Of a DNA stretch of 39,624 nt, positions 3,334-39,624 are shown piece after piece. The notes below the pieces were generated by a model. It had not been told where the DNA came from and ran no database searches. It saw nothing but the letters and a program-made list of their open reading frames with translations. The position numbers and the translations under genes are program-made. Positions within the stretch are counted from its first letter, which is position 1, and every line of letters starts with the position of its first letter. Origin of the DNA: a virus; IMG/VR virus record IMGVR_UViG_3300040801_002038, positions 1-39,624 of that record; one strand, given 5' to 3'.

Positions 3334-3384
3334 ACGTCTGGACAGGGAACGCACCCGGTCCCCCCCCACCCGTTCGAGCCGCCC

Positions 3385-3414: not shown

Positions 3415-3419
3415 ACCTT

Positions 3420-4559: not shown

Positions 4560-5035
4560 GGTGTCCCATCGCCAGGCGATCTATCCCGGCGCCTAACTTG
4601 GTTAGGGCCCGACATCACGAAACCCAGCGCCAGAACAGCCAGCGCCCGGGTCGCGTCGTCGGGAACGCTTGCGATCACCTGGCGCAGATCGCCCTCGACC
4701 TGGCGCCGGTTCGTGCCACGCAGCCCGGCAAGAATCGCGCGCGCTGCCAGTTTCGTCTGTGGGCCCGCGTTCGGCAGCAGGTCGAGCAGCTGCTGCAGCG
4801 CCTGGCGTTCCCGACGACGCGTCAGGCCCGACGGTGCCGACACCTGGCCGGGTTCCTCGCCCTCGGGCACCCCGTCCCACGTTTCGGACCGGTAGCCGAT
4901 CCGCACCGTGCCGTCGGGGTTCTCGGCCAGCACGTACACCTCGAGGGTTTGCGGATCGTCGGGCCCGTCGGGGTCCATCCCCCAGGGGTCGAGGTCGGTC
5001 GGCGTCGTGCGGGTGTGCCAGGTGGCGCGCATCAT
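4556..5035 (-). CDS. Hypothetical protein downstream of tail fibre (159 aa; fibre accessory?)
   Basis: ATG 5035 in an ATGA overlap with the fibre stop. The longer track ORF (to 5464) overlaps the fibre gene and is not used. Confidence 0.45.
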   Translation of the reverse strand: MMRATWHTRTTPTDLDPWGMDPDGPDDPQTLEVYVLAENPDGTVRIGYRSETWDGVPEGEEPGQVSAPSGLTRRRERQALQQLLDLLPNAGPQTKLAARAILAGLRGTNRRQVEGDLRQVIASVPDDATRALAVLALGFVMSGPNQVRRRDRSPGDGTP

Positions 5036-10900: not shown

Positions 10901-11772
10901 TGGATGGGCGCAACGTCCAGAATGGTGTACGTCGCGCGGCCGGTGTTGGGGTACTGCGGCAGCGAAATGTCGGGCGCGTCGATCACTGACGAACCGATGA
11001 ACGGTGCAGGTAGTGGCGACTGGTCTAGTTCGCCACCGCGGTACCAGACACGGATGCCCGGCGTGGCCGCGTCGGCTTCGTACGTGTTGCCGTTCACCCG
11101 CACGTTGCTCGGAATCGGCGGGCCGGGGTTCGGGTCGCCGGGGCTGCCGCCCATTCCGTCCACTTCGCCGAAATCACCACCGACAACGCCACCGACCGAT
11201 TCGATGCGGCCCTCGGACAGCGCCAGGATGAACTGCCCTTTCTCGGTCGACTCGCCGATGAAACTGGCACCGCCGGCGCTGTTGTTCTGCAGCACCAGGT
11301 CGACCTGCAGCCGCGCGTCGATCACCTGGCCGCCGACGTCGTGTTCGCCGAGCACTATCGGGATGATGTACCCCTGCCCGTACGTGGTGCGGATGCCTGC
11401 GAACCCGTACGTGGGAGACCTGGCGTCGTCGGTTTCCTGGCCGACGCCCTCGGGTTCGGGCTTGGGGATCAGTGCGTTGAGCGCCAGCGACACGCCCACG
11501 GCCAGAATCAGGTTCACGATCAACTGTCCGGCCGTAGCGGCTGCGTCCAGCGTCGGCATCACGATCACGTCGACATCGTCGGGCAGCGAAAGCGCCGCCT
11601 CGGCCTGCGTCAGCTTGCGACCGCTCAAGCCGATGTCGACGCCGACCCCTTGCCATTCCTCGGGCCAGTGATCGACCAGCAGCTCGAGTGCCGACTGCCC
11701 ACGCCATTCGACGTTCAGCGACTCGACCTGGCCCGTGCCGATCACTCCGCGTTTTAGATGTAGCCGGATCAC
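7924..11772 (-). CDS. Fused tail assembly protein I-like domain plus host-specificity protein J-like central tail fibre (1,282 aa)
   Basis: GTG 11772 in a GTGA overlap with the K-like stop. The first ~160 aa parallel lambda gpI (ubiquitin-like start, hydrophobic stretch, PTYGF..I.T.YGQG.IIPIVLGEHDVGGQVI). FILALSEGRIESVGG and YPRIGLVGLSVDA...QNPAWLAVEFLL...DLEAFGRWAVYCDE then parallel lambda gpJ. Confidence 0.85.
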   Translation of the reverse strand: MIRLHLKRGVIGTGQVESLNVEWRGQSALELLVDHWPEEWQGVGVDIGLSGRKLTQAEAALSLPDDVDVIVMPTLDAAATAGQLIVNLILAVGVSLALNALIPKPEPEGVGQETDDARSPTYGFAGIRTTYGQGYIIPIVLGEHDVGGQVIDARLQVDLVLQNNSAGGASFIGESTEKGQFILALSEGRIESVGGVVGGDFGEVDGMGGSPGDPNPGPPIPSNVRVNGNTYEADAATPGIRVWYRGGELDQSPLPAPFIGSSVIDAPDISLPQYPNTGRATYTILDVAPIQSVSLILFAPQGLFGSVQGGNTGSGQIIADPASYLVEWRPVGESAWRPFYDDAGQVVPLLRFTRTGPNNSQSVAFLRPTAREWRLNLLPASQTVSGPIEVSLAANNTWLGSNNGDGSFAPASPCLLRNVEWATGNAFAYPRIGLVGLSVDANSSGQVGLPEFKLRVQGIRVRAWDPNSGWSDYGWQRPLLAPWNIYDHPIGQNPAWLAVEFLLAPWGLGSLIAETQIDLEAFGRWAVYCDEIPAGWSEGPRYAFDGVLDRQKPAWETLQMIASAGAASIFLRGNTVSVVYRYRDSHGSGTPFAVGTRDATQLISAPMIRDMRVEWLPTKQRPHVLAYQYLNAEKNYVGDVLDVEDPDTATGPAAFNAPEPSKQVNQVFGITRAEQLYRQGVFEHRIARLVRKRVTFRVPFFALAAEVGDLVALQTDVVLPFENESLGLTVLQGGVGVTSVTVDQVVVIEAAKTYDLLARSIDGSVEQARVQNAAGTYQPGDAITLQSAVDIYDGAPASIGVVDQVVELYEITSLTLEENLDRQVTALEWTPDAYDVPPESGFSDGAPEIAEGSVGDNDTGQSTYSTDVFRVDPSTIRLYRKYDGPGWELAWAHPYGRSLDASSRVYVRRTNSGAPFLLQVEVGARRTWCDLADVNIGDALDVVVVVTNRRGVFPPVAEADAAALVVPEFRDVPWLSHSIVMRDVAFEPIGAGNIRVRWQPTDDVVAVEVRKGLTWDHGAQVAVLPATAAEFVDYDAARMTADKAPSYWVAGRASDGLYGPATAATDVAGMAGAQSVFAGGGTAVVATAELVDPVPGGTLDNLVHGTDDELHEGFAMAAGASDGSYTSAETEVVLLDDDGVEFEALAHWSVVPAIWARDSETLDDWTWRVGNGEGMHRSIDIRPATLGLPGILEDTIDDWFDGRTLDDVDQARVPCWVHPGEIGRRYGLNLESRYYTGGAWSSWAPHSNGLRRASRVQLRASLWRESDDLVVMLESLEASVTL

Positions 11773-12203
11773 GTGCACAGCTCCCAAGTTTGCGAGACCA
11801 CCGAACGCATGTGGCGCCAGTCTACGGACACCACGCCGGTGGTCGGCCTCGAGGTCCAGAACCTGCCGCCGATGACGACACCCACGCCGGCGTTTACGTG
11901 CGACGGTTCGCAGATACTGCTGCGCCCGGGTTCGGTCACGCCGACCAGGCCGTCGGCTGCCACCGCCGGCACCGGGTCGACCTGGTGCCAGCCAGGCGGG
12001 AACCCGCTCGAGGCCAGCGCCGCGGCGCAGCCACCGCTGCGCCACAGGCTTTCCATGCGTTCCCAGGGCGCCGGCAGCAGGTCGTCGGCGACTCCCAGCA
12101 TCGACAGCAGCACGCGCGTCGTGCCGAGGCAATCCAGGCCTTCCGACGGGTCACGGCCGCCGAGCAGGTAAGGCACGCCGAGCAGCTGCGCCGGGCTGTT
12201 CAT
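11769..12203 (-). CDS. NlpC/P60-type tail-tip protein (lambda gpK-like, without an obvious MPN half)
   Basis: GVPYLLGGRDPSEGLDCLGTTRVLL (catalytic Cys block) and a downstream His. Sits between the L-like and I/J-like genes. ATGA overlap. Confidence 0.7.
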   Translation of the reverse strand: MNSPAQLLGVPYLLGGRDPSEGLDCLGTTRVLLSMLGVADDLLPAPWERMESLWRSGGCAAALASSGFPPGWHQVDPVPAVAADGLVGVTEPGRSSICEPSHVNAGVGVVIGGRFWTSRPTTGVVSVDWRHMRSVVSQTWELCT

Positions 12204-12868
12204 GGTGCGCGCTCCGTCGGTACGCCGCGGAACCCGCCGAACCGTTTCGGGTGCAGCCTCGGGATGCGGCGCGCGTCCTCGTCGTCACCCCTGGCGATGC
12301 ACTCGGGAATCGTTTTGTTGCAGGTCGTGAACGCGGCCGCTTCGTTGATTGGGTAACCGCATTCGGGGCCACCGAACACCCAGCGGCACAGCTGCGGGTT
12401 GTACCGGTCGGTCGGCACGCGCCGCAGGAACGGCGACGGCAGCTCGAGCCGAAACGACACCTGCTGCGCGTCGGCCTCGGCGCTGGCGATCTGCCAAACC
12501 AGGGTAGCCTCGGGATGCGTCAACGGGTTGTTGGCGTTCACCAGGCGCGACGTTGCCTGGTTCCCGATGAACCCGTCGGCCTGGTCTAGGTAGGGCATCA
12601 ACCACCGGCCAGCGTTGTCGAAACTCAACGTGAGCGACGGCAGGTCGCCGTCGGCGTTCGCCTGGATCGGCGATTGAGCGATCGGGTACGGGTAGTACGT
12701 GCCGCCACCGATCACGATTTCGTCGTCGGCCGCGACGACGCGCAGCACGGTGCTCGGCGTCGGGCCCTCGTTCACCTCCACCTGGATTTCCCACGCCCAC
12801 AGCAGCGGGTCTGACGGGTAAGGGTTCTGGGATGCGGTCGCCAGGTCGGTCGGCAGGTTGACGGCCAT
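12200..12868 (-). CDS. Minor tail protein L-like (tail tip, Cys-rich Fe-S type C-terminus)
   Basis: LLWAWEIQV..., YYPYPIAQSPIQANADGDLPSLTLSFDN and CRWVFGGPECGY...CNKTIPEC...RFGGFRG parallel lambda gpL (YQPYPIQGSGFE..., CTWTYRGDECGY..., NFGGF). Confidence 0.85.
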   Translation of the reverse strand: MAVNLPTDLATASQNPYPSDPLLWAWEIQVEVNEGPTPSTVLRVVAADDEIVIGGGTYYPYPIAQSPIQANADGDLPSLTLSFDNAGRWLMPYLDQADGFIGNQATSRLVNANNPLTHPEATLVWQIASAEADAQQVSFRLELPSPFLRRVPTDRYNPQLCRWVFGGPECGYPINEAAAFTTCNKTIPECIARGDDEDARRIPRLHPKRFGGFRGVPTERAP

Positions 12869-14683
12869 TCACGCGCCCCCCGTAAACACCAGCTCGAACA
12901 CGCGCACCGATAGGCCGTAGGTCAAGCTCGAATCGCTCGAGGTCGTCGGCCGGTCGGTCACGATGAACGCCGTGGCCACCTGGCCCGGTGGCGTCCAGGC
13001 GAACGTGACGTTTACGCGCAGGAACTCGAGCAGCTGGTCGCGTTCGGATGCCGACAGCCCCACGAACTGCAGCTGCAGCGACCGGCGCGCCTGCGCAAAC
13101 CGTGGCAGGTTCCACCGGTAGCCGGTGTCGCCTTGGAACGTGTGGGCCGGAACGTCCTGCACCTCGGCAATCTGCGCCTGCGGTTCGAACGGCAGCACCT
13201 CGAGCGACCCGACGTCGGGCGATTCGCGGCCCGGCACCAGCGCCACGATCGGCGACGGCGTTACGGCCGGCAGCCCGAACGTCGACGGATCGTTTTCGAG
13301 GCCGAGGCCGACGGCGCGAAACTGCGAACCCGAACGCGGCGCGCCGGGAATGGATGCGATGCCGGACGCGAACAGGATTTCGAACGCAGCGTCGCCGGCC
13401 AGGTCGCGCCCCTCGACGTAAGCCTGAAACGGTGTCGACTCCGGGCCGTACCGTTTCACGTGATTTTTCGCCGGGATCGACACCACCGGCGAACCGTCGG
13501 TGCCGGTGATGAAATGCCGCCACGACTGGAACGCCGGCGCAGCGTTCGCGGCGCGTGCCTGCGTCAGCAGCACGTATTTCGTCGGGTTCACCGGCGTGGT
13601 TTCGAACCGCAGGCCGGGCACGCCCACCGGCGCGAACAGGTCGTCGATCGTCTGGCCGAACTGGCTGTAGTCGTCGTCTACCTTGACGTTGTAGAAGTCG
13701 TCTACGCCCAGCGCGTCGCGGATGCGAACCGCAAACCAGTTGGCGCGCTTCACGGCCGTGTGGAACTGCGGGTTGCCGGCCGTGCCGGCCTGGTACCCGT
13801 CGCGGCCTTGCCATCCCAGCAGGTCGAACGTCGCGCCGCGCTTGTACGTCGTAAACCCGCCCTGAATCAACTGGCGCTGGTTGTCGAGCCACGCCGGTGC
13901 GCCGGCCGCTTGCTCGACCCCATCCATGCCGAGGAAGTCGCGGAAATCCTCGGTAGTGCCGCCACCGGTGGCGCCGTCCGACTGGAACAGCACCAGGGCG
14001 GGCCCGCTCTGCGCCTGGTACGGCCGGTAAGTCCACGAGTGAAACACCAGCCACGTTTCGTCGACTACGGCGCCGCCAGGCCTGAACCCGAAGTCGAGCA
14101 CGCGATAATTAGGCGGTGGCGTCAACGCCTGCGGCTGCCGCGGCGCGTACTCGGCAGCGTCGTACGGCACCGACTCGTCGTCGAGCGTGGCCAGGTCGAA
14201 CGTCAGCACAGTGACGTCGGCAATCTCGAACGACCCACCTTGCCGACCGTCGCCGTTGTCGATCAACCGCCCGACGATCGCCAGCTGATCGGCCACCTTC
14301 CACGCGTCGCCCCACTGCGGGTGCTGGTCGAGGGTCAGCGACGAATCGAGAATCTGCACGATCTGCACCGGGTACGCGTCCTCGCCACCGTTGGGGGACA
14401 AGTGTCCGACGCTGCTGTCGTTCAGGCGTATGCGTAGGCGCTCCCGGCCGTCGGTTTGTGTGATGTTGCCCGACCCGTCGAGCGATGCCATGCACAGTTC
14501 CACCTGGTGCCGGCTGGTGTTGGGGTTCCACGCAAACGAACCGACGCTGGCGTGAATCACGAACGCCAGGCGGCCGCCGACCTGCGTGTGCTCGATCGGC
14601 ACGCGGTGGCAGATCGTCCAGTCGTAGGCGTTGACGCGCTGCACCTGGCCGACCCCCGACGACATACGCGCCAGCTGCGCCAT
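12869..14683 (-). CDS. Tail-tip protein: ~490-aa unknown N-terminal region plus C-terminal gpM-like domain (604 aa)
   Basis: ATG 14683 overlaps the tape-measure TGA (TGATG). The C-terminus FQGDTGYRWNLPRF...LQLQFVGLSASERDQLLEFLRVNVTFAWTPPGQ...VRVFELV parallels lambda gpM (RFGDGYSQRAP...LSVPREEATVLESFLEEHGGWKSFLWTPP...FEQV). Confidence 0.65.
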   Translation of the reverse strand: MAQLARMSSGVGQVQRVNAYDWTICHRVPIEHTQVGGRLAFVIHASVGSFAWNPNTSRHQVELCMASLDGSGNITQTDGRERLRIRLNDSSVGHLSPNGGEDAYPVQIVQILDSSLTLDQHPQWGDAWKVADQLAIVGRLIDNGDGRQGGSFEIADVTVLTFDLATLDDESVPYDAAEYAPRQPQALTPPPNYRVLDFGFRPGGAVVDETWLVFHSWTYRPYQAQSGPALVLFQSDGATGGGTTEDFRDFLGMDGVEQAAGAPAWLDNQRQLIQGGFTTYKRGATFDLLGWQGRDGYQAGTAGNPQFHTAVKRANWFAVRIRDALGVDDFYNVKVDDDYSQFGQTIDDLFAPVGVPGLRFETTPVNPTKYVLLTQARAANAAPAFQSWRHFITGTDGSPVVSIPAKNHVKRYGPESTPFQAYVEGRDLAGDAAFEILFASGIASIPGAPRSGSQFRAVGLGLENDPSTFGLPAVTPSPIVALVPGRESPDVGSLEVLPFEPQAQIAEVQDVPAHTFQGDTGYRWNLPRFAQARRSLQLQFVGLSASERDQLLEFLRVNVTFAWTPPGQVATAFIVTDRPTTSSDSSLTYGLSVRVFELVFTGGA

Positions 14684-17157
14684 CAAGTCACCTGCCTGAC
14701 TGCACGGCGCGACGCGGTCGACGTTTCGAGGCCGTTCTGCTGCACCGACAGCAGCAGGCCACGGTTTTCGAGCAGCCAGCGGCTGGTGTCTTTGCTGTCG
14801 ACCGTCTGCACCACGATCGTGAGACCACCACCGCCACCACCTTGCATATCGACAGGGATTCGCCGGCCGTCAGGCAACGGCACGAACGCTTCGGCACCGC
14901 GGCCCTCGCCGAACACGGCGACCTGTGGCGACCTGGCGATGCCGCCCTGCGCGTACTCGTTCACCGGCAAGGTTTCCGGCCGGCGCATGCGTCCCATCAT
15001 CACGCCACCCGTTTCGAACGTCAGGCCGACAGCAGACAGCGACCGCAGGATCAGGGCGCGCGTGATCAACTGCGACAGCTGGCGCAGCGTGGCCTCGGCA
15101 AACTCGTTGAACGCTTCGCGCGCGTCGCCGGCGCCGGTGGCCACGTCGACCAGCGCGTCGCTCAGTGCGTTCACGCCGTTGTTGATCAGTGACGTGGCCG
15201 CTTCCTGGCCGATTTTCGTCATGTCGAGCAGCGCCGCCGCGGCCTGCTGCGCGCCATCCGCGAACCCTTGCGCGAAGTCACCTCGAGCGCGTGCCGTGGC
15301 GCGTTCGGTGGCCTGCTCGACACCCTCGAGCGCCTGCGCCAGCTGCTCGGCGCTTATGCGTCCGTCGTCGAACGCCTGCTCGAACCCGAGGCGCTGCAGT
15401 TCGCCGTTGATCTCGGCCAGCCTGGTGCGCACCGCCTGCGTCTGCACGTCGAGGCCGAGCACCTGCTGCTCGAATCCGAGGCTTTGCTGCTCGATCGTGC
15501 GACCGATGCGTGCCTGCTCGCGTTCGGCAGCCGCGCCAAGATCCTCGAACGCCTGCGCCAGTTCCTGCGCGCCGATCCGGCCCGACTCGAAAAACTCGAG
15601 CGCCTGGTTTCCAGTCGACAGCAGCTGCAGCTCGGCGTTCGTGGCTGCCAGCGCGCGCTGCACGTCCTCAGTCGCCGGCAGGACACTCAGCAGCGTACGC
15701 TGCAGGTTCAGGAACCGGGTGCCCTCAGCGGCCTGGCCACGTATGTCGCCCTGCGACGCAGCGCCACCGCCGCCGGCGTCCTCGAACGCCTTACGGAACG
15801 CGTCGCCAGCCGCCGCGCCGGCCTCGGCTGCCGCCGATTCGCCGGTCGGCGTAGCCGCCTCGACAAGCTGTTCGATCGCGTCGGCGAATCTCTGCCGGGC
15901 TTGCCGCAGCTGCCCGCTCAACCCGTCGCCGATCACCTGCAACAGTTCCTGGCGCCGTTCGGCCAGGCCGAGTTCCGCCTGCGAAACTGTCGCCAGGAAC
16001 TCGGCCTCGGCACGCTGCAGCGCTTGCTGGCGCTCGAGCCGGATGGCCGACCGGTCGGCCGGATCACGTGCCTGCGCCATGGCGGTCGCGAACGGTTCAA
16101 CGGCTGCCCGTGCCGCGGCATCGCGCCGGCGAATGAACTCTGCCAGCTGCTGTTCGACTTCTCTCAGTTCCCGTTCGAGGTCGGACGAATCGAACAGCGA
16201 CACGCCCGGGATGCGTTCCAGCGTGTCGATGAACTCGATCACTGCGTCGGCCATCAAGTCCAACACGCCGATGAACCCGCGGCCGAGGTCGCGGAAAACC
16301 GCGACGATGCGGTCGCGGTTGTCACTAACGGTTTTCGCCAGCTGCGTGAACACGGCCGAAATGCCCGGCGCCACCTCGAGGAACAGCGCCTCTCCGACAC
16401 CGCGCAGCGACGTGCGGAACCTGGCCAACGCGTCGTTGAACGCAGCGGCACGGTTCAGGCTGTCGCGGTCGAACACCACGCCGAGCCGTTCGGCTTCCTC
16501 GGCCAGTTCGCGGATCGCAGCCGACCCGCCGGCCAGCAGCGGGCCCAGACGCGAACCGCTGCGCCCGAACACGGTCAGCAGCGCGTTGTTTCTCTCGGTG
16601 GCGCTGCCGACCTGCTCGAAACCGTCGGCGACATCGGCCAGCAGGTCGATCAAGTCGATGCGCTGCAGGTCGGCCAGTTCCTCGAGGTTCAGGCCGAGTT
16701 CGCGGAACGCGTCGGCCTGCGCCAGGCTGCCGCGGCGCGCGGCCTCGAGGTTGCGCGAGAAGATCGCCAGCGCGCTGCTGATTTCCGTGAACGCCACCGC
16801 GTTCAGCTCGCCGACAAACCGCAGCGCCGACAGCGATTCGGTGGTCGCCTGCAGCCGGTCGGCGGTCTTCACCACTTCGTCGAGGTCGTCGGCGATGCCC
16901 TGGAACAGCCCGAACGTGCGCCGCACCGCGACCACCGCGACGAACCCCAGCACCAGGTTTTTCGCGCTCAGGATCTTGGACGCCACGCCGTCGATCGCTT
17001 TGCCGGCCAGGCGCAGCGGTGCGGTGATGCCTTTGCCGAACTTGACGAACGCAGCCTGCGTTTTCCCGACCTGCGCGCGAACCTTCGTCAGGCCTTGCGA
17101 CATTCGGTCGCGAAACTGCCCGGTGATGCGCAGTTCGCGGTTTTCACTGGTCGCCAT
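14683..17157 (-). CDS. Tail tape measure protein (824 aa)
   Basis: Long Ala/Leu/Glu-rich helical protein. Internal repeats GRIGAQELAQAFEDLG and GRISAEQLAQALEGVE. Conserved C-terminal AQGGIARSPQVAVFGEGRGAEAFVPLPDGRRIPV. Sits downstream of G/GT. Confidence 0.85.
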   Translation of the reverse strand: MATSENRELRITGQFRDRMSQGLTKVRAQVGKTQAAFVKFGKGITAPLRLAGKAIDGVASKILSAKNLVLGFVAVVAVRRTFGLFQGIADDLDEVVKTADRLQATTESLSALRFVGELNAVAFTEISSALAIFSRNLEAARRGSLAQADAFRELGLNLEELADLQRIDLIDLLADVADGFEQVGSATERNNALLTVFGRSGSRLGPLLAGGSAAIRELAEEAERLGVVFDRDSLNRAAAFNDALARFRTSLRGVGEALFLEVAPGISAVFTQLAKTVSDNRDRIVAVFRDLGRGFIGVLDLMADAVIEFIDTLERIPGVSLFDSSDLERELREVEQQLAEFIRRRDAAARAAVEPFATAMAQARDPADRSAIRLERQQALQRAEAEFLATVSQAELGLAERRQELLQVIGDGLSGQLRQARQRFADAIEQLVEAATPTGESAAAEAGAAAGDAFRKAFEDAGGGGAASQGDIRGQAAEGTRFLNLQRTLLSVLPATEDVQRALAATNAELQLLSTGNQALEFFESGRIGAQELAQAFEDLGAAAEREQARIGRTIEQQSLGFEQQVLGLDVQTQAVRTRLAEINGELQRLGFEQAFDDGRISAEQLAQALEGVEQATERATARARGDFAQGFADGAQQAAAALLDMTKIGQEAATSLINNGVNALSDALVDVATGAGDAREAFNEFAEATLRQLSQLITRALILRSLSAVGLTFETGGVMMGRMRRPETLPVNEYAQGGIARSPQVAVFGEGRGAEAFVPLPDGRRIPVDMQGGGGGGLTIVVQTVDSKDTSRWLLENRGLLLSVQQNGLETSTASRRAVRQVT

Positions 17158-26036: not shown

Positions 26037-29000
26037 TCAGTCGAACGACGCCTGCGTGCGGCGCCATCCTTGCGACTTGCTGATCACCTGCGCGTAATAC
26101 ATCCGCAGCGCTTGGATGTCGCGCAGGCTGTTGCGTGTGACCGTGCGGCCGTTGACGGAATAGCTCAGCACCTCGAGGCCGGCCAGGATCGCAGCGTCGC
26201 ACGCTGCGACGATCTGCGTGGCGATCTCGAGTTGCGAACTGCCGGTGATTTCGATAGTGGCGCCGCTCGACACCTGGTCGACGGCGGCCGTGCTGACAGT
26301 GCCACCGCCAGCCGACGCTGTCGCGCTCAGACTCTCGGCGGTTTCGCCCGATCCGGTCGACCCGCTCGAGCCGTCGTCGAACGGGTCGAGTTCGTAGTCG
26401 ATCACCCGCGGGTGGTTGTAGTTCGCCAGGCTGCCGTCGAACCCTTCGCCGAGCAGCAGGCCGGCACGGATCGCGCCGCGGCCACTGCGGTGCACGTCGT
26501 CGTCGATGATCGCCACCGAATCCATGTCGACGGCCACGATATTCGGGTCGCTGGCTGCCTTCGCGTCCTGCGTGGCGCGCACCAGGTCGACGGCCGGCCG
26601 GTGGAACACCTGGCGGTCGTGGTCCATCAACCGGCCGATGATCACCGGCAGATCCTCGTCGACGCGGGTCTGAAAATCCTGCCGGATGCGGTCGATCAAC
26701 TTGTCGAGCGCCGCCGGGTACGAATCGTACCACTCTTCGAACGCGTCGCCCTCGCCCTGGTCGTAAACGAACCCGCGCACGTCGGGCACCTTCCCCTGCT
26801 CGCAAAGCCAGCGCCGTGCCCGATCCCAGCTGTACAACAGGTCGGCGTACAGGTCGCCGGCGTCGGGGTCCCACGACGGAATCAGCGGAATGTTCTGAAT
26901 GCTGGCCGCGTGCCGTGCGAGCTTGATCAAGTACACCCCCTCGGGGTGCCGCTCGCGCAGCATCATGATCAACGACACTTCGGGACCGAACAGCGGGGCG
27001 CCTAGGGTGTTTTGGGTCGGGTGTGTGTTTGTGTTCCCTGGCGCGCCGCCGACGGTTGGTTTGAGTTCCTCGAATTGGTGGCTGGTGTGGTTCCAGATGT
27101 AGGTCTGCCGCTCTCGCAGAATCGCGCCGGTCTGCGCGTCGATCCAGTTGCCGTTGTAGTTCGGGTCCCGGTCGAGATACAGCCAGGCTGCCTCGATCCA
27201 GCCCTGCGTCTGCGACTGCCCGATCAGGAAGTAGACCGGCACGCCGAGTGGTGCGTCGTCGGTCGGATCGACGGCCGTGCCGGCCATGATCGACGACCAC
27301 ACGTCGTAGCACCTCGAGCCGACCTGCAGCATGGTTTCGCCGGTCCAGGTCAGGCCGTCGGCCTGCAGGGTCATGCCTTCCTGGTACGGGTCGACCATCC
27401 CGAGGCGGCCGCCGGCCGCGCCGAGTGCCAGCTGCGTCTGTTCGCGGATCAGCCAGGCGCTGGCCACGTAACGGTTCGTTACTGGCGATTTCAGCACCGG
27501 TATGCCGTTCACCGTCACCAGCTGCTGCGACTGGTCTGGTGAGTAGTTGACGGCCACCCACGGAATCTGCGACGGGTCGGCGGCGTTCGTGATCGGGAAC
27601 CCGAACTCGACGCCCAGCGCTGCGCAATGTTCGCGAATCTGTTTTGCCAGGTTCGCGTACGACAACCAAAACCGGTCGATCTTCTGACTCGACTTCGGCA
27701 GATCGGTCGCCGGCAGACCGGGGTCGGTCGCGACGTCCTCGTCGCGGCCAAACGCCGTGAACAGTCCGGCCAGGTGCGTCGTGACTGCAGGCGACGCGCG
27801 ACTGATCGCGCCGAACAGGTTGCGCAGCAACAGCCGCGCGTGCTCGAGCGCGCTGCCGCCGTTGTGCGGCGTGGTGGTGCCGGTCTGCGTCCGGTAGGCG
27901 TCGGACCACCGCCGGCCGCGCGCGATCCAGGCGTCGCCGACGTCGGTAGGCGTGTCGACGATCACCCCGATTCTGAACGTGTCGTCGTCGACCACCTCGA
28001 GCACCTGGTGCGCGCCGGTGATCGGCACGGCCGACGTCAGGTTGCCGAGCAGCAACCAGTCGCCGACGGTCAGGCCGTGGTCGCGGGTGGTTTTGATTTC
28101 GGTGCCATCGGCTACGGCTGTCACGACTGACGGCACCAGGTCGCGCGCCGCAACGGTGCCGAGGTTCCGGCCATAGAACGGTTCCGCCGACGTGTCGGGC
28201 AGCGCCGCCGGGTCGGCCGGGTAAACCGGGATGCTGATTTGCGAATCGCTTTCGACGGTCGCCAGGTGGTAGCCGGTCAGTTCTTCGAACCCCGGCCCCA
28301 TTTCGACGTGCACGTACACCGTGCCAGACCAGCCATGCACGTTCGGGTTCAGCAGGTCGACGAACAGGTCGAGCAGCGTTTTGCTGTTCTCGGCGTCGAA
28401 CGTGATCGAGTCGACGCCGAACACGCGCGACTGTTCCTGCACAGTCATCGGGTCGAGGGTCGACGGGTCGGGCACCTCGATCGGCACCGACACCGAATCG
28501 GCGTCGACCACCGTGGCGGTGTACCAGTCCGACAGCGACTCGAACCCAGCGCCACCGACCGAAACGTACACCCGTTCGGTGCCGGTCCACCCGTGCGCCC
28601 GGTCAAGGTTCAGCTGCACGCTGGTGTTCGCCGTGATCGTGTACGTGGCCACCTTGATCGGCTTGCTGCCGTCGGCCATCGACGCGGCCAGGCGGCCGCC
28701 GGTCAGGTCGCCGCGCAGCTTGCACACGTACGGCGCGGCGCTGTCGTCGGTCGGCGGCGTGTCGTCGTCGAGCGCGTCGACCACGAACGCGGCCTCGACC
28801 CCGTGCTCGTTCGACGGATACATACCGACGGCCGGCGGCACGAACTCGGTGACGCCGTTCGGGTTGCTGGCAAACGGCGCAAACGGGTTCAGGTAGGTGT
28901 CGAACGACTGTTCGCCGATCTGCGCGAACGCCTGCAGCGTCAGGTTGCTGGTGATGCCGGCGACGGTGGTATGAAACCCGGCCGACCCCTGCTCGCGAAT

Positions 29001-29702
29001 GTACAGCCGCGTGGCCGTCACTTCCTCGAGCCAGTAATCGGTTCGCGCGTTGAACGCGCCGGCGCTGGTGCCGGCAACTGTCAGCAGCTGGCCCGGCCGG
29101 AACCCGTCGGCCAGAAAGTCGCCCGATGTGGCTTCGATGTAGTGCCGCCCGATGCCGCTACCCAGTGGCGACGGCGGCGCATCCTCGCGCGTGATCGTGA
29201 TGCCGCGGCCGCCGGATGCCGTCACCAGCGACGACGCGAACGCGTGCCCGGCGTCGTCGAACTCTCCGGGAATGTCCCAGTTGTCGTTGTCGACGCGCGT
29301 GCCGTAGTGCCAGCCGTTCGGGTCGGCGCCCGACGTGACCACGACACCGCGCACCGTCACGACGGTGTCGTAACTCGACGCGCTGCCGGCCGCCGGCGCG
29401 TACACTCGCGACGTGCCGTCGCCGTTGTCGGCGATCGTCGAAATGGCACGCTGTAGACCGACGTGGTTGTAGATCGTCGGCCGCAGGTCGACGCCGAGTG
29501 CATCCGCGTGCCGCTGGTACCAGTCGTACCGGGCCGTGCGCAGCGCGCGCAGCACGTCCTCGTCGCGCCGGTTCCGGGGAAACTTGCCGTTCTGGAAAAG
29601 CTGCGCGTCTCCGGAAACCAGGCTGCCGACAGTGCGAGCAGGCGCTAGGCCGTCGGCGACGCCTTCGCCGAGGAACAGAAACAGCGGCCGTTCGTCTGCC
29701 AT
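26037..29702 (-). CDS. Giant virion-module protein (1,221 aa): beta-repeat modules, SASA/SGNH-type carbohydrate esterase, G/S linker, gpW-like head-tail joining domain
   Basis: ATG 29702. Esterase blocks VYFLIGQSQTQGW, FVYDQGEGDA and DDDVHRSGRGAIRAGLLLGE. C-terminal LEIATQIVAACDAAILAGLEVLSYSVNGRTVTRNSLRDIQALRMYYAQV follows the gpW pattern. Occupies the lambda W position. The track ORF upstream of 29702 overlaps the neighbouring gene and is not used. Confidence 0.7.
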   Translation of the reverse strand: MADERPLFLFLGEGVADGLAPARTVGSLVSGDAQLFQNGKFPRNRRDEDVLRALRTARYDWYQRHADALGVDLRPTIYNHVGLQRAISTIADNGDGTSRVYAPAAGSASSYDTVVTVRGVVVTSGADPNGWHYGTRVDNDNWDIPGEFDDAGHAFASSLVTASGGRGITITREDAPPSPLGSGIGRHYIEATSGDFLADGFRPGQLLTVAGTSAGAFNARTDYWLEEVTATRLYIREQGSAGFHTTVAGITSNLTLQAFAQIGEQSFDTYLNPFAPFASNPNGVTEFVPPAVGMYPSNEHGVEAAFVVDALDDDTPPTDDSAAPYVCKLRGDLTGGRLAASMADGSKPIKVATYTITANTSVQLNLDRAHGWTGTERVYVSVGGAGFESLSDWYTATVVDADSVSVPIEVPDPSTLDPMTVQEQSRVFGVDSITFDAENSKTLLDLFVDLLNPNVHGWSGTVYVHVEMGPGFEELTGYHLATVESDSQISIPVYPADPAALPDTSAEPFYGRNLGTVAARDLVPSVVTAVADGTEIKTTRDHGLTVGDWLLLGNLTSAVPITGAHQVLEVVDDDTFRIGVIVDTPTDVGDAWIARGRRWSDAYRTQTGTTTPHNGGSALEHARLLLRNLFGAISRASPAVTTHLAGLFTAFGRDEDVATDPGLPATDLPKSSQKIDRFWLSYANLAKQIREHCAALGVEFGFPITNAADPSQIPWVAVNYSPDQSQQLVTVNGIPVLKSPVTNRYVASAWLIREQTQLALGAAGGRLGMVDPYQEGMTLQADGLTWTGETMLQVGSRCYDVWSSIMAGTAVDPTDDAPLGVPVYFLIGQSQTQGWIEAAWLYLDRDPNYNGNWIDAQTGAILRERQTYIWNHTSHQFEELKPTVGGAPGNTNTHPTQNTLGAPLFGPEVSLIMMLRERHPEGVYLIKLARHAASIQNIPLIPSWDPDAGDLYADLLYSWDRARRWLCEQGKVPDVRGFVYDQGEGDAFEEWYDSYPAALDKLIDRIRQDFQTRVDEDLPVIIGRLMDHDRQVFHRPAVDLVRATQDAKAASDPNIVAVDMDSVAIIDDDVHRSGRGAIRAGLLLGEGFDGSLANYNHPRVIDYELDPFDDGSSGSTGSGETAESLSATASAGGGTVSTAAVDQVSSGATIEITGSSQLEIATQIVAACDAAILAGLEVLSYSVNGRTVTRNSLRDIQALRMYYAQVISKSQGWRRTQASFD

Positions 29703-29721
29703 CGAGCCGACGGTGCCACCT

Positions 29722-29735
29722 GCACCCGCCGGAGT
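29722..29735. repeat. Partial copy (gcacccgccggagt) of the recurrent GC-rich element; identical 14-mer at 37136-37149
   Basis: Read directly in the 41-nt gap between the Zn-finger gene and the giant gene. Confidence 0.8.
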
Positions 29736-29743
29736 CCAGCGGG

Positions 29744-30004
29744 CTATTTCTGCACAGCAGAAAACCCGGGGAGTTCCCCCAGATCGTCGGGGTCGATCTC
29801 GAGCGACCGGTACAGCCGCAGGCACGCCCGGCAACGGTGGTACCGGGTGCGACCTCGCTGGCCGTAGGTGCGCGGGTGCACGGCGCCGCAGTGCGGGCAG
29901 CGGAACGGCACGAACGGCACCACCGGCGACCGTTCGGCGTCCTGGTCGGCTGGCGGCCGCTGGCGGCGCCTGTGCGGCCTCAGATCGTCCAGAAACCCAC
30001 TCAT
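29744..30004 (-). CDS. Small Cys4 zinc-finger protein (86 aa), Ogr/Delta-like pattern
   Basis: ATGA overlap with the terL stop. FRCPHCGAVHPRTYGQRGRTRYHRCRACLRLY is CxxC-x18-CxxC, with RYHRC echoing the RYHQC of P2 Ogr. Confidence 0.4.
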   Translation of the reverse strand: MSGFLDDLRPHRRRQRPPADQDAERSPVVPFVPFRCPHCGAVHPRTYGQRGRTRYHRCRACLRLYRSLEIDPDDLGELPGFSAVQK

Positions 30005-31902
30005 GGCCTCGAACCCCGCAGGTCGTCGAGGAACCCGCCACCGGAGCGCCTGGTCTGCCGCTTGCGCTCCCTGATGGCCTCGAGCTTGCTGCGTGCCTGC
30101 TCGGCGCGCGCGGCCGTCGACTTGACCCGGTCAACGCCGAGCATGGTGGCGCCGACCAGGTTGTACACCTCGCAATCCCACGCGTGATCGTGCCGGTGGC
30201 CGGCCTTTGTGCGCCAGCGCTGCCGCGCCTTGCGGCCGCCGGCGGCGCGCTCTGCGACCTTTTCCTGCGACTGCAGCTGGCGCAGGTAGGCCGTCGACAC
30301 GCTGGCGTGCACCTGCCAGCCGCCGTCGCCGTCGTCGTTCAGCGCCTTGGCCAGGCGGTCGCGGAACGAATCCACCCGCACGTTCCAGACGATCAAGCTG
30401 CTGCGCAGCGGGGCGCCGCTCAACGGGTGCCGGTCGACCTTCGTGGTATGGAACAGCTGCACCGCGTCGCCGGCCACGCCCTTGATCGCGCGCACCTGCT
30501 CGAGGCGCTCGCGGGCGAACTCGTACACCTCGTCGGTGCGGTATCGGCTGTCGATGCAGGCCAGGTCGATGCGGTGGCCTTCGTGCCACTCGGTGTCGAG
30601 GAACCCCTCGAGCACGTCCCAGGATCGCGCCAGGCCGTAACGCAGCAGCCAGCTGTCGCCGTCGGCGCCCCATGCCCGAATGGCATACGGCAGTTCGGTT
30701 TTCTGCACGTCGACCCCCATGGTGATCGCCACCGGTTCGGCCGCGTCTGGCAGCGTGTCGCGCTCGTAGCCGCGCACGCGGCGGCCGACGCCCTCCGGGG
30801 TCGGTTCGGCGACAACCTCGCGCCACGGCTCTCCCAGCCAGCTGTTCGTGAAGTTCTGGCGGCCGGCGTCGGTGTCGCGAGACAGCAGCCAGGTGGCGAC
30901 GATCTCGGCCCACGTCAGCCATGGGGAATACCCCGACCACAGGTGGTACGAACGGTGGTCGGTCAGCACGTCGTCGGGCACCACCACCACCGGCACGCCT
31001 AGGTCGGTCACCTCGAGGCGGCCGGCCTCGGGCACCCACACGCCAGCCGCCAGCATCCGGCGTTTGTGCACGTCGTCGATGCGTTCGCCGCAGTGCGGGC
31101 ATTCGTACCAGGCTGCTGCGTTCGCTTTCAGCCGGCGGGGGTCGCCTTCCTGCTCGAGGTCCCAACGCACCTGCCCCCACTCGAGCACCTGGTATTCGTC
31201 GCAGTGCGGGCACGGCACCCAGTAGCGGCGCCGGTCGCCGGCCTCGAACTCCACCGAAATCAGCCCCTCGGGCACCGTCGGCGTCGATACCAGGCCGATC
31301 TTCCGCGACGGGAACGTGCGGGTGCGTTCCTTCGCCAGGTCCCACGGGCTGGCTTCTTTGCCGGTGTAGCGTGGCCACTTGTCGCACTCGTCGCCCACCA
31401 GCAACCCGCCGGCGACCGACGCCAGCGCCGCGGCCGAGTTCGAGGCGCGGCCGTACAGCACGCACCGGCGGAACGCCAGCTCGGCGACCTTCCAGTCGCC
31501 CGACCAGCCGGTGATTTCCTCCGACAGCCGGGGCGACTCCTCGAACATCGGTTTGAGGCGCCGCGAAACCTGCTGGTCGACGTCGGCGTCGCGTGGCAGC
31601 ACCAGCACGATCGGCACCGGGTTTTCGGACACCGTCCAGCCGATCACGTTGTGAAACGCTTCGGTGCCGCCGACCTGCGTCGACTTGCGCAGCGTCACCT
31701 GTTCGACCGTGCGGTCGCGAAACGCGTCCTGAATCTCTCGCAGGTACGGGGTGCGGTCGGTGCGCCACGGGCCCGGTTCGGCCGACACCAGGCGCGACAG
31801 CACGCGGTTTTCGTCGGCCCACTCCGACACCGACTGTTGCCGAGGCGGTCGCCAGGCGTCGCACTCGGCGGGCAGCCACAGCGTGTCGGCGGTGTCAGTC
31901 AC
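30001..31902 (-). CDS. terL: Terminase large subunit, lambda GpA family (633 aa)
   Basis: GTG 31902 (GTGA overlap with terS). Walker-A-like RKSTQVGGTE, DECDKWP, and zinc-ribbon-like YWVPCPHCDEYQVLEW ... YECPHCGERI typical of GpA terminases. Confidence 0.9.
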   Translation of the reverse strand: MTDTADTLWLPAECDAWRPPRQQSVSEWADENRVLSRLVSAEPGPWRTDRTPYLREIQDAFRDRTVEQVTLRKSTQVGGTEAFHNVIGWTVSENPVPIVLVLPRDADVDQQVSRRLKPMFEESPRLSEEITGWSGDWKVAELAFRRCVLYGRASNSAAALASVAGGLLVGDECDKWPRYTGKEASPWDLAKERTRTFPSRKIGLVSTPTVPEGLISVEFEAGDRRRYWVPCPHCDEYQVLEWGQVRWDLEQEGDPRRLKANAAAWYECPHCGERIDDVHKRRMLAAGVWVPEAGRLEVTDLGVPVVVVPDDVLTDHRSYHLWSGYSPWLTWAEIVATWLLSRDTDAGRQNFTNSWLGEPWREVVAEPTPEGVGRRVRGYERDTLPDAAEPVAITMGVDVQKTELPYAIRAWGADGDSWLLRYGLARSWDVLEGFLDTEWHEGHRIDLACIDSRYRTDEVYEFARERLEQVRAIKGVAGDAVQLFHTTKVDRHPLSGAPLRSSLIVWNVRVDSFRDRLAKALNDDGDGGWQVHASVSTAYLRQLQSQEKVAERAAGGRKARQRWRTKAGHRHDHAWDCEVYNLVGATMLGVDRVKSTAARAEQARSKLEAIRERKRQTRRSGGGFLDDLRGSRP

Positions 31903-36212: not shown

Positions 36213-36993
36213 CGAACCCCCCGTCGTCTGCAGCGTCCTCGCGCCGCGCCGCGTCCTCGAGAATCTCGGCCATGGTCGGTTTCCGCTGTCGCCAGCCGAT
36301 CGCCTTGTCGACGGCCTGCGCGCCGATCGCGCCGGCTGGTGTGCCTTTCCGCCACCGGGCTTTGCCGCGTTGCTGCTGCTCGCGCAGGTGCTGCAGGTGC
36401 TCGGCGTAGCTGTTGGCCTTGATGTCGTGACGGCGTGCCAGCGCGCGGTCGATCCACTGCACGACCTCGGCCTCGGTCACGCGGTATTCGGCGGCCACTT
36501 CTCGCGGCGTGCGGTGGTCGGCGATCACGCGCACAGCCGCGACCGAGTCGCGCTGCCGCTGCCGGAACTCGCGCAGCGTGATGCCTTCGGCCTCGGCCTG
36601 CCGTTCCTCCCACTCCCGATCCAGTTCCTGCGGCTGGTCGCCGAACCGGCCGTCGTCGGCGCCAGGCACGGCAGCCAGGCGCACCTCGATCCGGCGCGCC
36701 ACGTTGCCGACCACGTCGGGCCAGTCGGGGTCGCCGAACAGCTCGGCCAGGTACAGCCCCTGGTTTTCGGTGCCCCGTGCGTGCGCCTCGGTCACCAGCT
36801 GCTGCACGACCTGGTCGGTCACCAGGTCGCTGCGCGCGCTGCGTTCGATGCGTGTGGCTAGTTCGCGCCTGTGCGGCCGGAACTTGCCCGTATGGACGCC
36901 CCACGACGCCAGCAGGGTGTCGAGGCGCTTCACTTCCTTGGCGCGCTCTGCGTCCGTCACAGGGCGCCCTGCGCCCTCGGTGTGCCTTGTCAT
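36199..36993 (-). CDS. Hypothetical regulator-like protein (264 aa) with HTH-like segment and acidic aromatic C-terminus
   Basis: ATG 36993 with SD aggaga. RTPREVAAEYRVTEAEVVQWIDRALARR resembles an HTH / sigma region-4-like unit. Ends ...AADDGGFDVEF. Confidence 0.4.
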   Translation of the reverse strand: MTRHTEGAGRPVTDAERAKEVKRLDTLLASWGVHTGKFRPHRRELATRIERSARSDLVTDQVVQQLVTEAHARGTENQGLYLAELFGDPDWPDVVGNVARRIEVRLAAVPGADDGRFGDQPQELDREWEERQAEAEGITLREFRQRQRDSVAAVRVIADHRTPREVAAEYRVTEAEVVQWIDRALARRHDIKANSYAEHLQHLREQQQRGKARWRKGTPAGAIGAQAVDKAIGWRQRKPTMAEILEDAARREDAADDGGFDVEF

Positions 36994-37246: not shown

Positions 37247-37792
37247 CCTTGCCTTGTTCACGGCTGCGCAGCGCCGCAGCCACCGCTTGCGTTCCGCGTC
37301 GCGACACGGCTGGCACGTCTTCATGCCGGGCACCGCGGTGCGCTTGCCGTGGCATCGGTTGCAGGGTTTCGCTTCGCCGTTACGGCGCCAGCCAGCGCCC
37401 CATTCGGTCGGGTTCCAGCCGGCCAGCTCGACGGCGCCGTCGACCTGCACGACCAGGCCGGCGGCCTCGAGTTGCGCGAGCACTTCCCACAGCTCGAGCA
37501 GCGGCACCCATTCCTCCAGGTGCTCGCCCTCCCTGATCAAGTCGTCGTCGGTCAGCACGCCGGCGCTGCCGCTACGGCCGACCAGCGCGACCAGGGCGAA
37601 GTACAGCGCGACGCCCTTGGCATCGACCTGGCGCAGCTTCGCGTTGCGGGTCCAGTTCTCGTCGAGCTTGACGAACAACGGCCCACGCTTACGATTCGAG
37701 CCAGCTGTCGGCCTGTCATCGCCGGCGGTTCTCCCATCCGGCGCCCTGCGGTCTCGACCGTTGCGGCGCCGGTTGTCTTTTCGGGATGCCAT
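37208..37792 (-). CDS. DNA-binding / replisome-organiser-like protein candidate with C-terminal CxxC...CxxC (194 aa)
   Basis: ATG 37792. Basic N-terminus. FVKLDENWTRNAKLRQVDAKGVALYFALVALVGRSGSAGVLTDDDL resembles phage replisome-organiser/DnaD-like winged-helix N-domains. CNRCHGKRTAVPGMKTCQPC follows. Confidence 0.35.
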   Translation of the reverse strand: MASRKDNRRRNGRDRRAPDGRTAGDDRPTAGSNRKRGPLFVKLDENWTRNAKLRQVDAKGVALYFALVALVGRSGSAGVLTDDDLIREGEHLEEWVPLLELWEVLAQLEAAGLVVQVDGAVELAGWNPTEWGAGWRRNGEAKPCNRCHGKRTAVPGMKTCQPCRDAERKRWLRRCAAVNKARRTGGCDQEGGAA

Positions 37793-37803
37793 CGTCTGAG
37801 GGG

Positions 37804-38115
37804 TCAGGCGAACAGGCCGAGGAAGAAGAGGGTCCCGATAATCAGGACGCCCAGCAGAGCCACCAGGACGCCGCGGAAGCCGTCGAGGTCTTCCCAGGCC
37901 TTCCTTTTCGGAGGGGCCGGCTGGCGGTGGCTGGGCAGGCCTCGGAAGGACCCAGGCGCCACGCCACCGAAGCGCTCCTGGTTCCCACGCCGGCGGCAGT
38001 CGGCGAAGCGCTTCCCGCACGCCCCCGGGTACTGGCCGAGGTAGCCGCAGTGGTGCCCGCGGTACTCAAAGGGGCAGAGGTTGGAGAGGTCATCCCCGTA
38101 GGCGTCCTGGATCAT
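37804..38115 (-). CDS. Tail-anchored membrane protein carrying a gpL-C-terminus-like Cys4 domain (103 aa)
   Basis: ATG 38115 in an ATGA overlap. CPFEYRGHHCGYLGQYPGACGKRFADC...RFGGV has the same spacing as this phage's L-like protein (CRWVFGGPECGY...CNKTIPEC...RFGGF) and as lambda gpL. Ends with the TM segment FRGVLVALLGVLIIGTLFFLGLFA. Confidence 0.6.
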   Translation of the reverse strand: MIQDAYGDDLSNLCPFEYRGHHCGYLGQYPGACGKRFADCRRRGNQERFGGVAPGSFRGLPSHRQPAPPKRKAWEDLDGFRGVLVALLGVLIIGTLFFLGLFA

Positions 38116-38348
38116 CGCCTGCACTCCTCCGGCAGCTGGCCGCCGTTGTCGATGACCTTTCGCGCGCAGGCCGATCCGAACGGAAAACAGCCGAGGTTGT
38201 TGGGGTCATCGTCGCGGAACTGGCGCCGTTCGGCTTCCTCGGTGGTGATGTAGCCGCCCGGTTCGCCCTGGTCGAACACCAGGAACGTGATCCGTTCGGG
38301 GTGCAGCTGCCGGCCGCAAAGCTCGCATCGGTCAAGTGTCGCTGTCAT
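38112..38348 (-). CDS. Small Cys-containing protein (78 aa), first gene of the leftward string
   Basis: ATG 38348 with SD ggagaa 10 nt upstream. CELCGRQL ... GCFPFGSAC. Confidence 0.5.
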   Translation of the reverse strand: MTATLDRCELCGRQLHPERITFLVFDQGEPGGYITTEEAERRQFRDDDPNNLGCFPFGSACARKVIDNGGQLPEECRR

Positions 38349-38362
38349 CGCGTTGGTTCTCC

Positions 38363-38384
38363 GCGGCGCCACTGCGGCGCCACT
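38363..38384. repeat. Perfect tandem 11-mer x2 (gcggcgccact) in the leftward 5' leader
   Basis: 38363-38373 equals 38374-38384. Each copy contains the GGCGCC palindrome. Lies immediately upstream (minus sense) of the SD. Confidence 0.9.
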
Positions 38385-38388
38385 CGGC

Positions 38389-38417
38389 ATGATGCCCGGC
38401 GCCTGGTCTCGCGTCCA
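38389..38417 (-). promoter_or_regulatory. Candidate leftward promoter TGGACG-N17-CATCAT
   Basis: Minus-strand -35 at 38417-38412 and -10 at 38394-38389, each 4/6 to consensus with a 17-nt spacer. The predicted start falls in the tandem 11-mers. Confidence 0.3.
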
Positions 38418-38444
38418 GCCCGTTGCAGTTTTTTCTGGTTTGCG

Positions 38445-38473
38445 TTGCAATGTTCAGCGCTGTCCAGCATACT
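38445..38473 (+). promoter_or_regulatory. Candidate rightward promoter TTGCAA-N17-CATACT
   Basis: -35 at 38445-38450, exact 17-nt spacer, -10 at 38468-38473. ATG 38481 lies 7 nt after the -10, so the mRNA is either leaderless or translation uses ATG 38499. Flanked by GTTGCAGT / ACTGCAAC sites. Confidence 0.45.
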
Positions 38474-38480
38474 GCAACCC

Positions 38481-39462: not shown

Positions 39463-39624
39463 CAGCCCGACCGTTGACCCTTCCCGCCCTGATCGCCGAA
39501 CAGTGGTCGGGCACGCTGCAGCAGCTGGCCGAGGCCGTCGGCGTGTCCCAGTCCAGCGTGTGGAACTGGACGCAAGGCACCACCGCACCCAGGCTGCAGG
39601 CGCGCAACGCGCTGGCCGCGGCGC
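39459..39624 (+). CDS. XRE-type HTH protein, N-terminal part (continues at 3-341 after joining ends)
   Basis: ATG 39459-39461 overlaps the upstream TGA. MTARPLTLPALIAEQWSGTLQQLAEAVGVSQSSVWNW... Confidence 0.7.
   Translation, partial: MTARPLTLPALIAEQWSGTLQQLAEAVGVSQSSVWNWTQGTTAPRLQARNALAAA
39508..39624. repeat. Right copy of exact 117-bp terminal direct repeat
   Basis: Identical to nt 1-117. Confidence 0.9.

Follow-up and report, generated by a model that had tools for sequence, protein, structure and literature searches.

The window analysed here comprises all 39,624 nucleotides (nt) of IMG/VR virus record IMGVR_UViG_3300040801_002038, and our subject is one small gene within it: a 103-amino-acid (aa) open reading frame (ORF) on the minus strand, at 37804..38115, whose product joins a four-cysteine (Cys4) domain of the kind found at the C-terminus of the lambda tail-tip protein gpL to a predicted membrane anchor. 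The window represents a full-length genome of about 39.5 kb, either circular or terminally redundant, since positions 1-117 are identical to positions 39508-39624 and three metagenome contigs (L001-L003) span the junction. The gene map shows two units that diverge from an intergenic region at 38349..38477. Repeats resembling operators lie in this region: two direct repeats of CGTTGCA(G/A)T start at 38421 and 38443, ACTGCAAC lies inverted near 38469, and a perfect tandem 11-mer, GCGGCGCCACT, lies at 38363-38384. The rightward unit encodes proteins of 66 and 248 aa, a helix-turn-helix (HTH) protein, a PD-(D/E)XK exonuclease and a RecT-like protein. The leftward unit opens with a Cys-rich 78-aa ORF followed by the 103-aa gene, ORFs of 156, 253 and 73 aa, a ParB-like nuclease and a 764-aa ORF, and runs on through TerS, TerL, portal, protease, major capsid, tape measure, a 605-aa ORF, gpL, a 144-aa ORF and an I/J-like ORF. 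Because of its place in this map beside the divergent region, the 103-aa gene is non-structural and promoter-proximal. The initial annotation, made from the sequence alone, had assigned it to an early leftward operon; its membership of a leftward unit, outside the structural module and adjoining the control region, agrees with that assignment, whereas the word 'early' reflects position only.

The signals expected of a translated gene are present. The coding sequence ends in a stop codon at 37804-37806 and starts at an ATG at 38115 that is preceded by a GGAGGAG motif and shares its A with the TGA stop of the upstream 78-aa ORF, forming an ATGA overlap. A GTG at 38124 was considered as an alternative start and rejected, as it would leave zero spacer behind the Shine-Dalgarno sequence. 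GC content at third codon positions (GC3) is 0.88-0.90 in the frame of the gene, the same as in other genes, codon usage is typical of the genome, and the identical gene was called on five independent JGI/Logan metagenome contigs, all from one phage strain. The ORF first described as carrying a Cys4 motif and a hydrophobic C-terminal helix is a real gene with the product as quoted, and we regard the identity and architecture assigned to this protein as very probably right. The 78-aa ORF (38112..38348, minus strand), first gene of the leftward unit and also called on JGI contigs, contains a CxxC...C-x6-C pattern; it had no family or homologue matches in Pfam, PHROGs, NCBIfam or PADLOC, and a tblastn search of GenBank phages with it was empty. 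It may be a zinc ribbon and could partner the Cys4 protein. On the 3' side of the 103-aa gene is a spacer of ~125 nt (37679..37803, minus strand) in which GC content is flat over codon positions in all frames; a terminator scan found no terminator-like hairpin in it, and folding gave no significant structure (z-score -0.65). On one contig the call for the downstream 156-aa gene runs through 37679-37786 (minus strand), giving an Arg-rich N-terminus, MASRKDNRRR....

The gpL-type domain occupies residues 11-52 (37960..38085, minus strand). Its cysteines, at positions 14, 23, 33 and 40, are spaced C-x8-C-x9-C-x6-C and are followed by RFGG at 48-51; all four are invariant in 28 aligned stand-alone and gpL sequences, and the further signature residues G24-Y25, K35, N45 and R48-F-G-G51 are present and conserved. 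Among the six-frame ORFs of the window, exactly two carry the composite motif C-x8-C-x-Y...C-x6-C...[RN]FGG, namely the 103-aa gene and the phage's own gpL-like gene; it was seen in 0 of 200 Markov-1 random sequences. Several comparisons converge on the same relationship. BLASTP aligns the 103-aa protein with the phage's own gpL over 68 columns (34% identity, E 4e-7), and phrog_18, a minor tail protein family, matches residues 11-52 (E 5.9e-4) in the same profile columns that match the C-terminus of the phage's gpL. A profile of the stand-alone family recovers lambda gpL (PDB 8iyk_L; E 1.5e-7), aligned on C173, C182, C205, C212 and NFGG, and an hhalign comparison of the stand-alone alignment with a gpL alignment gives 99% probability (E 8.6e-18). 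A similarity to gpL C-termini, claimed at the outset on the basis of motifs that prove to have been correctly quoted from lambda gpL, is thereby borne out by profile-profile comparison.

Database searches with the protein itself lead to the same family. A word-indexed protein search returned only the 103-aa protein, so that an exhaustive phmmer search was needed; among 1.84 billion representative proteins it yielded 26 matches at E <= 1e-3, of which ~17 are left once cysteine-free repeat and PAS proteins are removed. These spurious matches are the large proteins P0003-5, 7, 8, 15, 19 and 25. Two matches of gpL length, P0018 and P0022, align at their C-termini (E about 3e-4); both exceed the Pfam Phage_tail_L threshold, and P0022 is named 'lambda family phage minor tail protein L' by JGI. 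Likewise, tblastn against 50,697 GenBank phages matched only genes annotated as minor tail protein L. Modelled by AlphaFold2 with the 28-sequence alignment, the domain reaches a mean predicted local distance difference test score (pLDDT) of 64, a moderate confidence, and the top PDB match of this model in Foldseek is again 8iyk_L, although weakly so (E 0.3, TM 0.52). Because confidence in the Cys4 models is low to moderate, we treat this match as supportive and not as independent evidence. Judged by its sequence, the N-terminal region of ~55 residues is truly homologous to the C-terminal Cys4 domain of gpL. In the lambda tail structure C173, C182, C205 and C212 are the ligands of an iron-sulfur (Fe-S) cluster (PMC10721106). 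The cluster bound by the lambda gpL domain is [4Fe-4S], and the 103-aa domain would by extension bind a metal as well.

Homology to gpL does not make the protein a copy of the gpL encoded by the same phage. The latter is a 222-aa tail-tip protein (12200..12868, minus strand; Pfam Phage_tail_L 3.9e-7, phrog_18 7.6e-12), encoded between the tape measure and 605-aa ORF on one side and the I/J-like ORF on the other, and its Cys4 domain, delimited by alignment with relatives, covers residues 161-213 (12230-12388, minus strand). In this protein and eight relatives the cysteines are spaced C-x8-C-x12-C-x6-C, with an 11-residue insertion before RFGG; a compact form is common to the 103-aa protein, the gpL lineages P0012, P0018 and P0022, and all stand-alone proteins. 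Over the domain, the 103-aa protein is 30% identical to its own phage's gpL, 37-41% identical to compact gpL C-termini of unrelated phages, and 34-53% identical to free-standing small proteins. Since the phage's gpL is no closer than other gpLs or stand-alone proteins, and since the loop lengths differ, the 103-aa protein belongs to a stand-alone lineage of its own kind and did not arise by recent duplication within this genome. The statement that both proteins of this phage have the same Cys spacing holds for C-x8-C and C-x6-C but not for the interval between Cys2 and Cys3 (x9 versus x12) or for the insertion, and 'paralogue' is apt in the broad sense of homology but not in that of an internal copy made recently. 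Other hallmarks of gpL are missing as well. Only 13 residues precede the first cysteine, versus the N-terminal tube-like beta-sandwich (HDI) of about 150 residues in gpL; Pfam and PHROG matches are restricted to the C-terminal part of the profiles; and about 25 kb separate the gene from the tail module, in which a gpL gene would have its place.

The second part of the protein is a C-terminal hydrophobic helix, residues 82-103 (37807..37872, minus strand), predicted to be a membrane anchor from hydropathy, AlphaFold2 and its conservation in the orthologue P0002. The segment is uncharged, with a mean Kyte-Doolittle value of up to 2.83 over 19 residues, and AlphaFold2 models a single helix at 73-102 with a mean pLDDT of 96-97 over residues 81-100. 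A flexible Pro/Arg-rich linker joins it to the Cys4 domain; the DLDGFRG sequence immediately before the helix is conserved in P0002 together with the anchor. The N-terminus, MIQDAYGDDLSNL, is acidic, and neither a signal peptide nor a twin-arginine translocation (Tat) motif was found there. Fe-S domains are loaded in the cytoplasm, and export of one would require a Tat signal. In a second anchored relative, P0020, an N-terminal anchor is followed by RWRLRRSTR, which places its domain inside as well. For these reasons (cytoplasmic cluster loading, absence of a Tat signal and the inward orientation of P0020) we think it probable that the Cys4 domain sits at the cytoplasmic face of the membrane. 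The earlier description of a tail-anchored, cytoplasm-facing protein with a single C-terminal transmembrane helix is thus the natural reading of a protein with a predicted hydrophobic helix and no signal peptide.

The 103-aa protein belongs to a set of about 15 small proteins, known from metagenomes, in which the Cys4 domain stands alone or is fused to other sequence. Eight members of 55-114 aa contain little beyond the domain (P0006, P0009, P0014, P0017, P0023, P0024, P0026 and P0027), others are fused to unrelated N- or C-terminal regions (P0010, P0016 and P0021), one carries two tandem copies (P0011/P0036), and in P0020 the domain comes after an N-terminal hydrophobic helix and RWRLRRSTR. 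P0002, a protein of 95 aa with 55-56% identity, keeps the cysteines, the DLDGFRG linker and the C-terminal anchor, and sits on a 2.3-kb JGI contig. Where enough contig is available to read the context, members are surrounded by non-structural genes of the early or replication type, and no member lies in a tail module. P0006 is encoded in a region that also holds RNase_T, RusA and a replication-type HTH_36 gene (L007); DUF722 and terminase genes follow closely downstream of P0023 and P0027 (L013, L015); P0021 lies between an HTH gene and terminase (L017); and a further member lies in a run of small ORFs (L014). The tandem protein P0036, of 293 aa, is encoded at 10001-10882 of L016 (JGI Ga0117912_1000084, a 91-kb contig), where the gene immediately before it is that of an ATP-dependent DNA ligase; this is the early region of a prophage, with genes for an integrase, a repressor-type HTH protein and an SNF2 helicase.

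No family in Pfam, PHROG, NCBIfam or PADLOC covers the stand-alone proteins; the family members P0006, P0013 and P0022 have sub-threshold matches to PF09356 over the C-x6-C...RFGG half of the domain. A tblastn search of GenBank phages with P0006 gave no matches, and we found no description of free-standing gpL-C domains in the literature searched, whose coverage was incomplete so that absence is not proof. The domain itself is known; a free-standing early-region gene family, and its tail-anchored version, appear to be undescribed. We also considered a conserved two-gene cassette and rejected it, because the gene upstream of P0020 is unrelated to the 78-aa ORF of the window. The broad domain alignment was too diverse to scan loci with. 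A scan of genome contigs found only a 368-aa gpL-like protein (L012 9023-10129) in a prophage of the Synergistaceae metagenome-assembled genome UBA5827; it carries an insertion of ~170 residues between cluster cysteines 2 and 3, which indicates that the Cys2-Cys3 loop is highly tolerant.

The gene had also been proposed to be a moron of foreign origin. The count of 11 CpG dinucleotides in 37801-37920 is right, although the comparison stretch at 36241-36360 contains 22 and not 20, and with 32 CpG in 312 nt the ORF is the lowest among all 312-nt windows and all genes (genome average about 48 per 312 nt); its observed/expected ratio is 0.87, versus 1.13-1.46 in other genes. Yet the remainder of its composition is typical of the genome: GC is 0.689, GC3 is 0.88, and the codon-usage score of -0.859 is inside the genome range of -0.62 to -1.05. 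Recoding the amino-acid sequence with genome codon usage predicts 37.9 +/- 3.1 CpG versus the 32 observed (P about 0.04), so the deficit mostly follows from the composition of a Cys/Gly/Leu/Phe/Tyr-rich protein, with a marginal residue left. Promoter inspection, a terminator scan and folding revealed no promoter- or terminator-like element of its own flanking the gene, which is instead translationally coupled to its upstream neighbour. It does not have the structure that defines a moron, and the case for foreign DNA is weak.

What might such a protein do? We propose that the 103-aa product is a non-virion protein whose first ~55 residues would fold as the four-cysteine metal-cluster domain of gpL and whose last 22 residues would anchor it in the inner membrane so that the domain faces the cytoplasm. 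As the second and coupled gene of the unit that leaves the control region, it is probably expressed before, or independently of, the tail genes, a timing read from gene order. The presence of free-standing copies in early or replication regions of diverse phages suggests that the domain has an intracellular job apart from tip building. In lambda the gpL C-terminal domain lies outside on the tip, where it contacts gpJ and not the tape-measure protein and completes the HDII-insertion domain of gpJ (PMC10721106), and in phage JBD30 the corresponding domain clips onto the surface of the hub protein (PMC11445458). A free copy could reuse this docking to hold or titrate a partner protein at the cytoplasmic face of the membrane. 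The partner might be the phage's own J-type protein, in which case the timing or place of tip assembly would be affected, or its counterpart from a competing prophage or tailocin; alternatively it might be a host protein that tethering would localise or sequester. By analogy with these virion structures we put forward docking on a hub, J-type or host partner as a tentative mechanism, more doubtful than the architecture on which it builds. It is also conceivable, though unlikely, that the gpL Fe-S domain is a mobile, independent module which many phages deploy early, free or tethered, to act on another protein; such a module may be a tip-surface mimic that titrates the hub or J-type proteins which competing prophages or tailocins make, or a decoy for a host sensor of tail tips.

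Several observations weigh against this picture of a tethered, cluster-bearing docking domain. Taken singly, the 103-aa sequence scores 12.9 bits against Pfam PF05100 (Phage_tail_L), below the cut-off of 25, and in the AlphaFold2 model of the full protein the Cys4 domain has a low pLDDT of about 55-75. The bound metal may be zinc and not an Fe-S cluster. Charge balance beside the anchor gives a weak signal, +1 in the 103-aa protein and about -1 in P0002, and the predicted topology consequently rests mainly on the absent export signal. P0002 is the only diverged orthologue with a C-terminal anchor, and its neighbourhood was not recovered by exact look-up, by a scan of viral contigs or by two metagenome scans. 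Most family members have no membrane anchor, are soluble and lie near DNA-metabolism genes, which fits a role unrelated to tails equally well. Finally, no co-variation or experiment ties the 103-aa protein to J or to any other partner.

A second explanation is a small membrane-bound protein for redox or Fe-S handling that would act by its cluster and not by docking. It could be an electron carrier, a sensor of oxygen or iron, or an acceptor that draws clusters from the host supply, perhaps in order to equip gpL at a later stage. The protein keeps all four ligand cysteines, as well as G-Y, K, N and RFGG, in the form seen in cluster-binding gpL, whose cluster is reported to be oxygen-sensitive (Tam 2013, as cited in PMC10721106), and Fe-S proteins are common among DNA-metabolism genes such as those beside family members. 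On the other hand, we recognised no partner enzyme in the genome (reductase, radical S-adenosylmethionine enzyme or ribonucleotide reductase) and found no similarity to ferredoxins or high-potential iron-sulfur proteins in Pfam, NCBIfam or the PDB, and cluster binding by the 103-aa domain is itself a prediction. We judge this explanation rather unlikely. Superinfection exclusion, proposed at the outset, would have a membrane-parked tip mimic block the DNA entry of related phages through their tip or tape-measure complex. The predicted anchor and the resemblance to a tip component speak for it, and small single-pass membrane proteins near phage control regions are often exclusion factors, as in HK97 gp15, T4 Imm and P22 SieA. 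However, the predicted topology puts the domain in the cytoplasm, with the whole envelope between it and incoming tips, and most family members have no anchor at all; for these two reasons we consider exclusion improbable. The natural partners of the domain would not reach a cytoplasmic copy either, because in lambda it sits outside the tip and contacts gpJ, not the tape measure (PMC10721106). That the gene is expressed from a prophage is conjecture: none of the larger ORFs scanned was recognised as an integrase, and the small ORFs around 2941-5032 were scanned only in part. Nor did PADLOC, Pfam, PHROGs or NCBIfam return a match to a known exclusion or defence family. The earlier suggestion that the protein intercepts incoming tail tips is accordingly a poor fit, since a copy that faces the cytoplasm would have the inner membrane between itself and the tips.

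The conservation and surface exposure of the domain on siphophage tips (PMC10721106) would also suit, though indirectly, a decoy: a copy of a late structural epitope, made early, would engage a sensor of host defence or another host factor and keep it from triggering. Free copies in the early regions of many unrelated phages are typical of counter-defence genes, but we know of no defence system that senses gpL, the window offers no supporting context, and the membrane anchor is left unexplained; we think this very unlikely. Equally hard to credit is a decaying or accidental gpL fragment in the early region that reads into a hydrophobic tail and has no function. The very few relatives, the lowest CpG of all genes and the ~125-nt spacer without codon-position bias in GC behind the gene are what such a fragment might leave, but P0002, at 56% identity, keeps cysteines, linker motif and anchor, codon usage and GC3 match those of the genome, the start has a Shine-Dalgarno sequence and an ATGA overlap, and compact free-standing copies are conserved across unrelated phages. 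Docking of the tethered domain on a partner protein is the mechanism that we retain, with the reservations set out above.

The TerL of this genome is <=36% identical to that of any cultured phage, megablast of the region against GenBank phages gave no matches, and no relatives of the neighbouring 764-aa ORF were found in viral contigs. Some features of the structural module merit mention. An ORF of up to 1365 aa at 26037-30134 (minus strand) lies between the large terminase and portal genes, where lambda has the 68-aa gpW; Pfam recognises a SASA carbohydrate-esterase domain in it at residues 967-1229 (1.8e-14), and an esterase is unusual at this place in the genome; the final ~60 residues are similar to a head-tail adaptor (phrog_118, 8e-6). 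The 605-aa ORF (12869-14686, minus strand), which has no family match, occupies the slot of gpM, a small distal tail protein, between tape measure and gpL. In the J-like ORF (7924-12132, minus strand) a gpI-like tail assembly segment (phrog_32) at residues 189-276 precedes the J core at 547-955, which suggests an I-J fusion or a mis-set start.

The function of the gpL Fe-S cluster 'remains to be characterized' according to the lambda structure paper of 2023 (PMC10721106). The gpL-type domain is found free-standing among early or replication genes of several unrelated phages and has acquired a membrane anchor at least twice, C-terminally here and in P0002 and N-terminally in P0020, with the domain on the predicted cytoplasmic side, which argues that it can work outside the virion. 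A domain of ~55 residues that is easily expressed is a test object in which cluster, redox behaviour and partner binding can be studied without tail assembly. If it does dock on hub proteins, tail assembly would have a phage-encoded regulator or competitor of a new kind; if it is a mimic or decoy, it would give the first functional clue to why an Fe-S cluster is present in siphophage tips. Should it prove to be a metal-binding small protein of unrelated function, the annotation would still be useful for a family that is unnamed in Pfam, PHROGs and NCBIfam.

In overall build the 103-aa protein is comparable to ElaB and YqjD of Escherichia coli, which are C-tail-anchored inner-membrane proteins, and to HK97 gp15 and T4 Imm, small phage membrane exclusion proteins. 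All are small, with one terminal hydrophobic helix and no signal peptide, and the two phage proteins are likewise encoded among non-structural genes, but none of the four has a sequence relationship to the 103-aa protein or a gpL-type Cys4 domain. The domain has its counterparts in virion proteins. RcGTA gp13, representing the alphaproteobacterial hub C-terminal domain of Pfam PF09356 (Phage_BR0599), has the same Cys4 module and carries an Fe-S cluster (PMC10721106); unlike the 103-aa protein, which has no match to PF09356, it belongs to the virion hub and has a large N-terminal domain in addition. Domain II of the JBD30 upper baseplate protein likewise has a Cys4 metal site built from C-x8-C and C-x6-C (Cys147, Cys156, Cys238 and Cys245), but this is a structural protein, compared here with the 103-aa protein by cysteine pattern, and its site is modelled as a 'putative metal ion' only (PMC11445458), so that the metal in such domains is not always established. 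The closest parallel is the C-terminal iron-binding domain of lambda gpL (residues ~154-232; 8iyk chain L; the C-terminal part of PF05100), which shares the C-x8-C...C-x6-C order, the G-Y after Cys2, the K after Cys3 and the (R/N)FGG motif. The loop between Cys2 and Cys3 is x9 in the 103-aa protein versus x22 in lambda gpL and x12 in the phage's own gpL. In contrast to lambda gpL, the 103-aa protein has no N-terminal tube-like HDI domain and is encoded outside the tail module, and it ends in a predicted C-terminal membrane anchor that is present in no described gpL.

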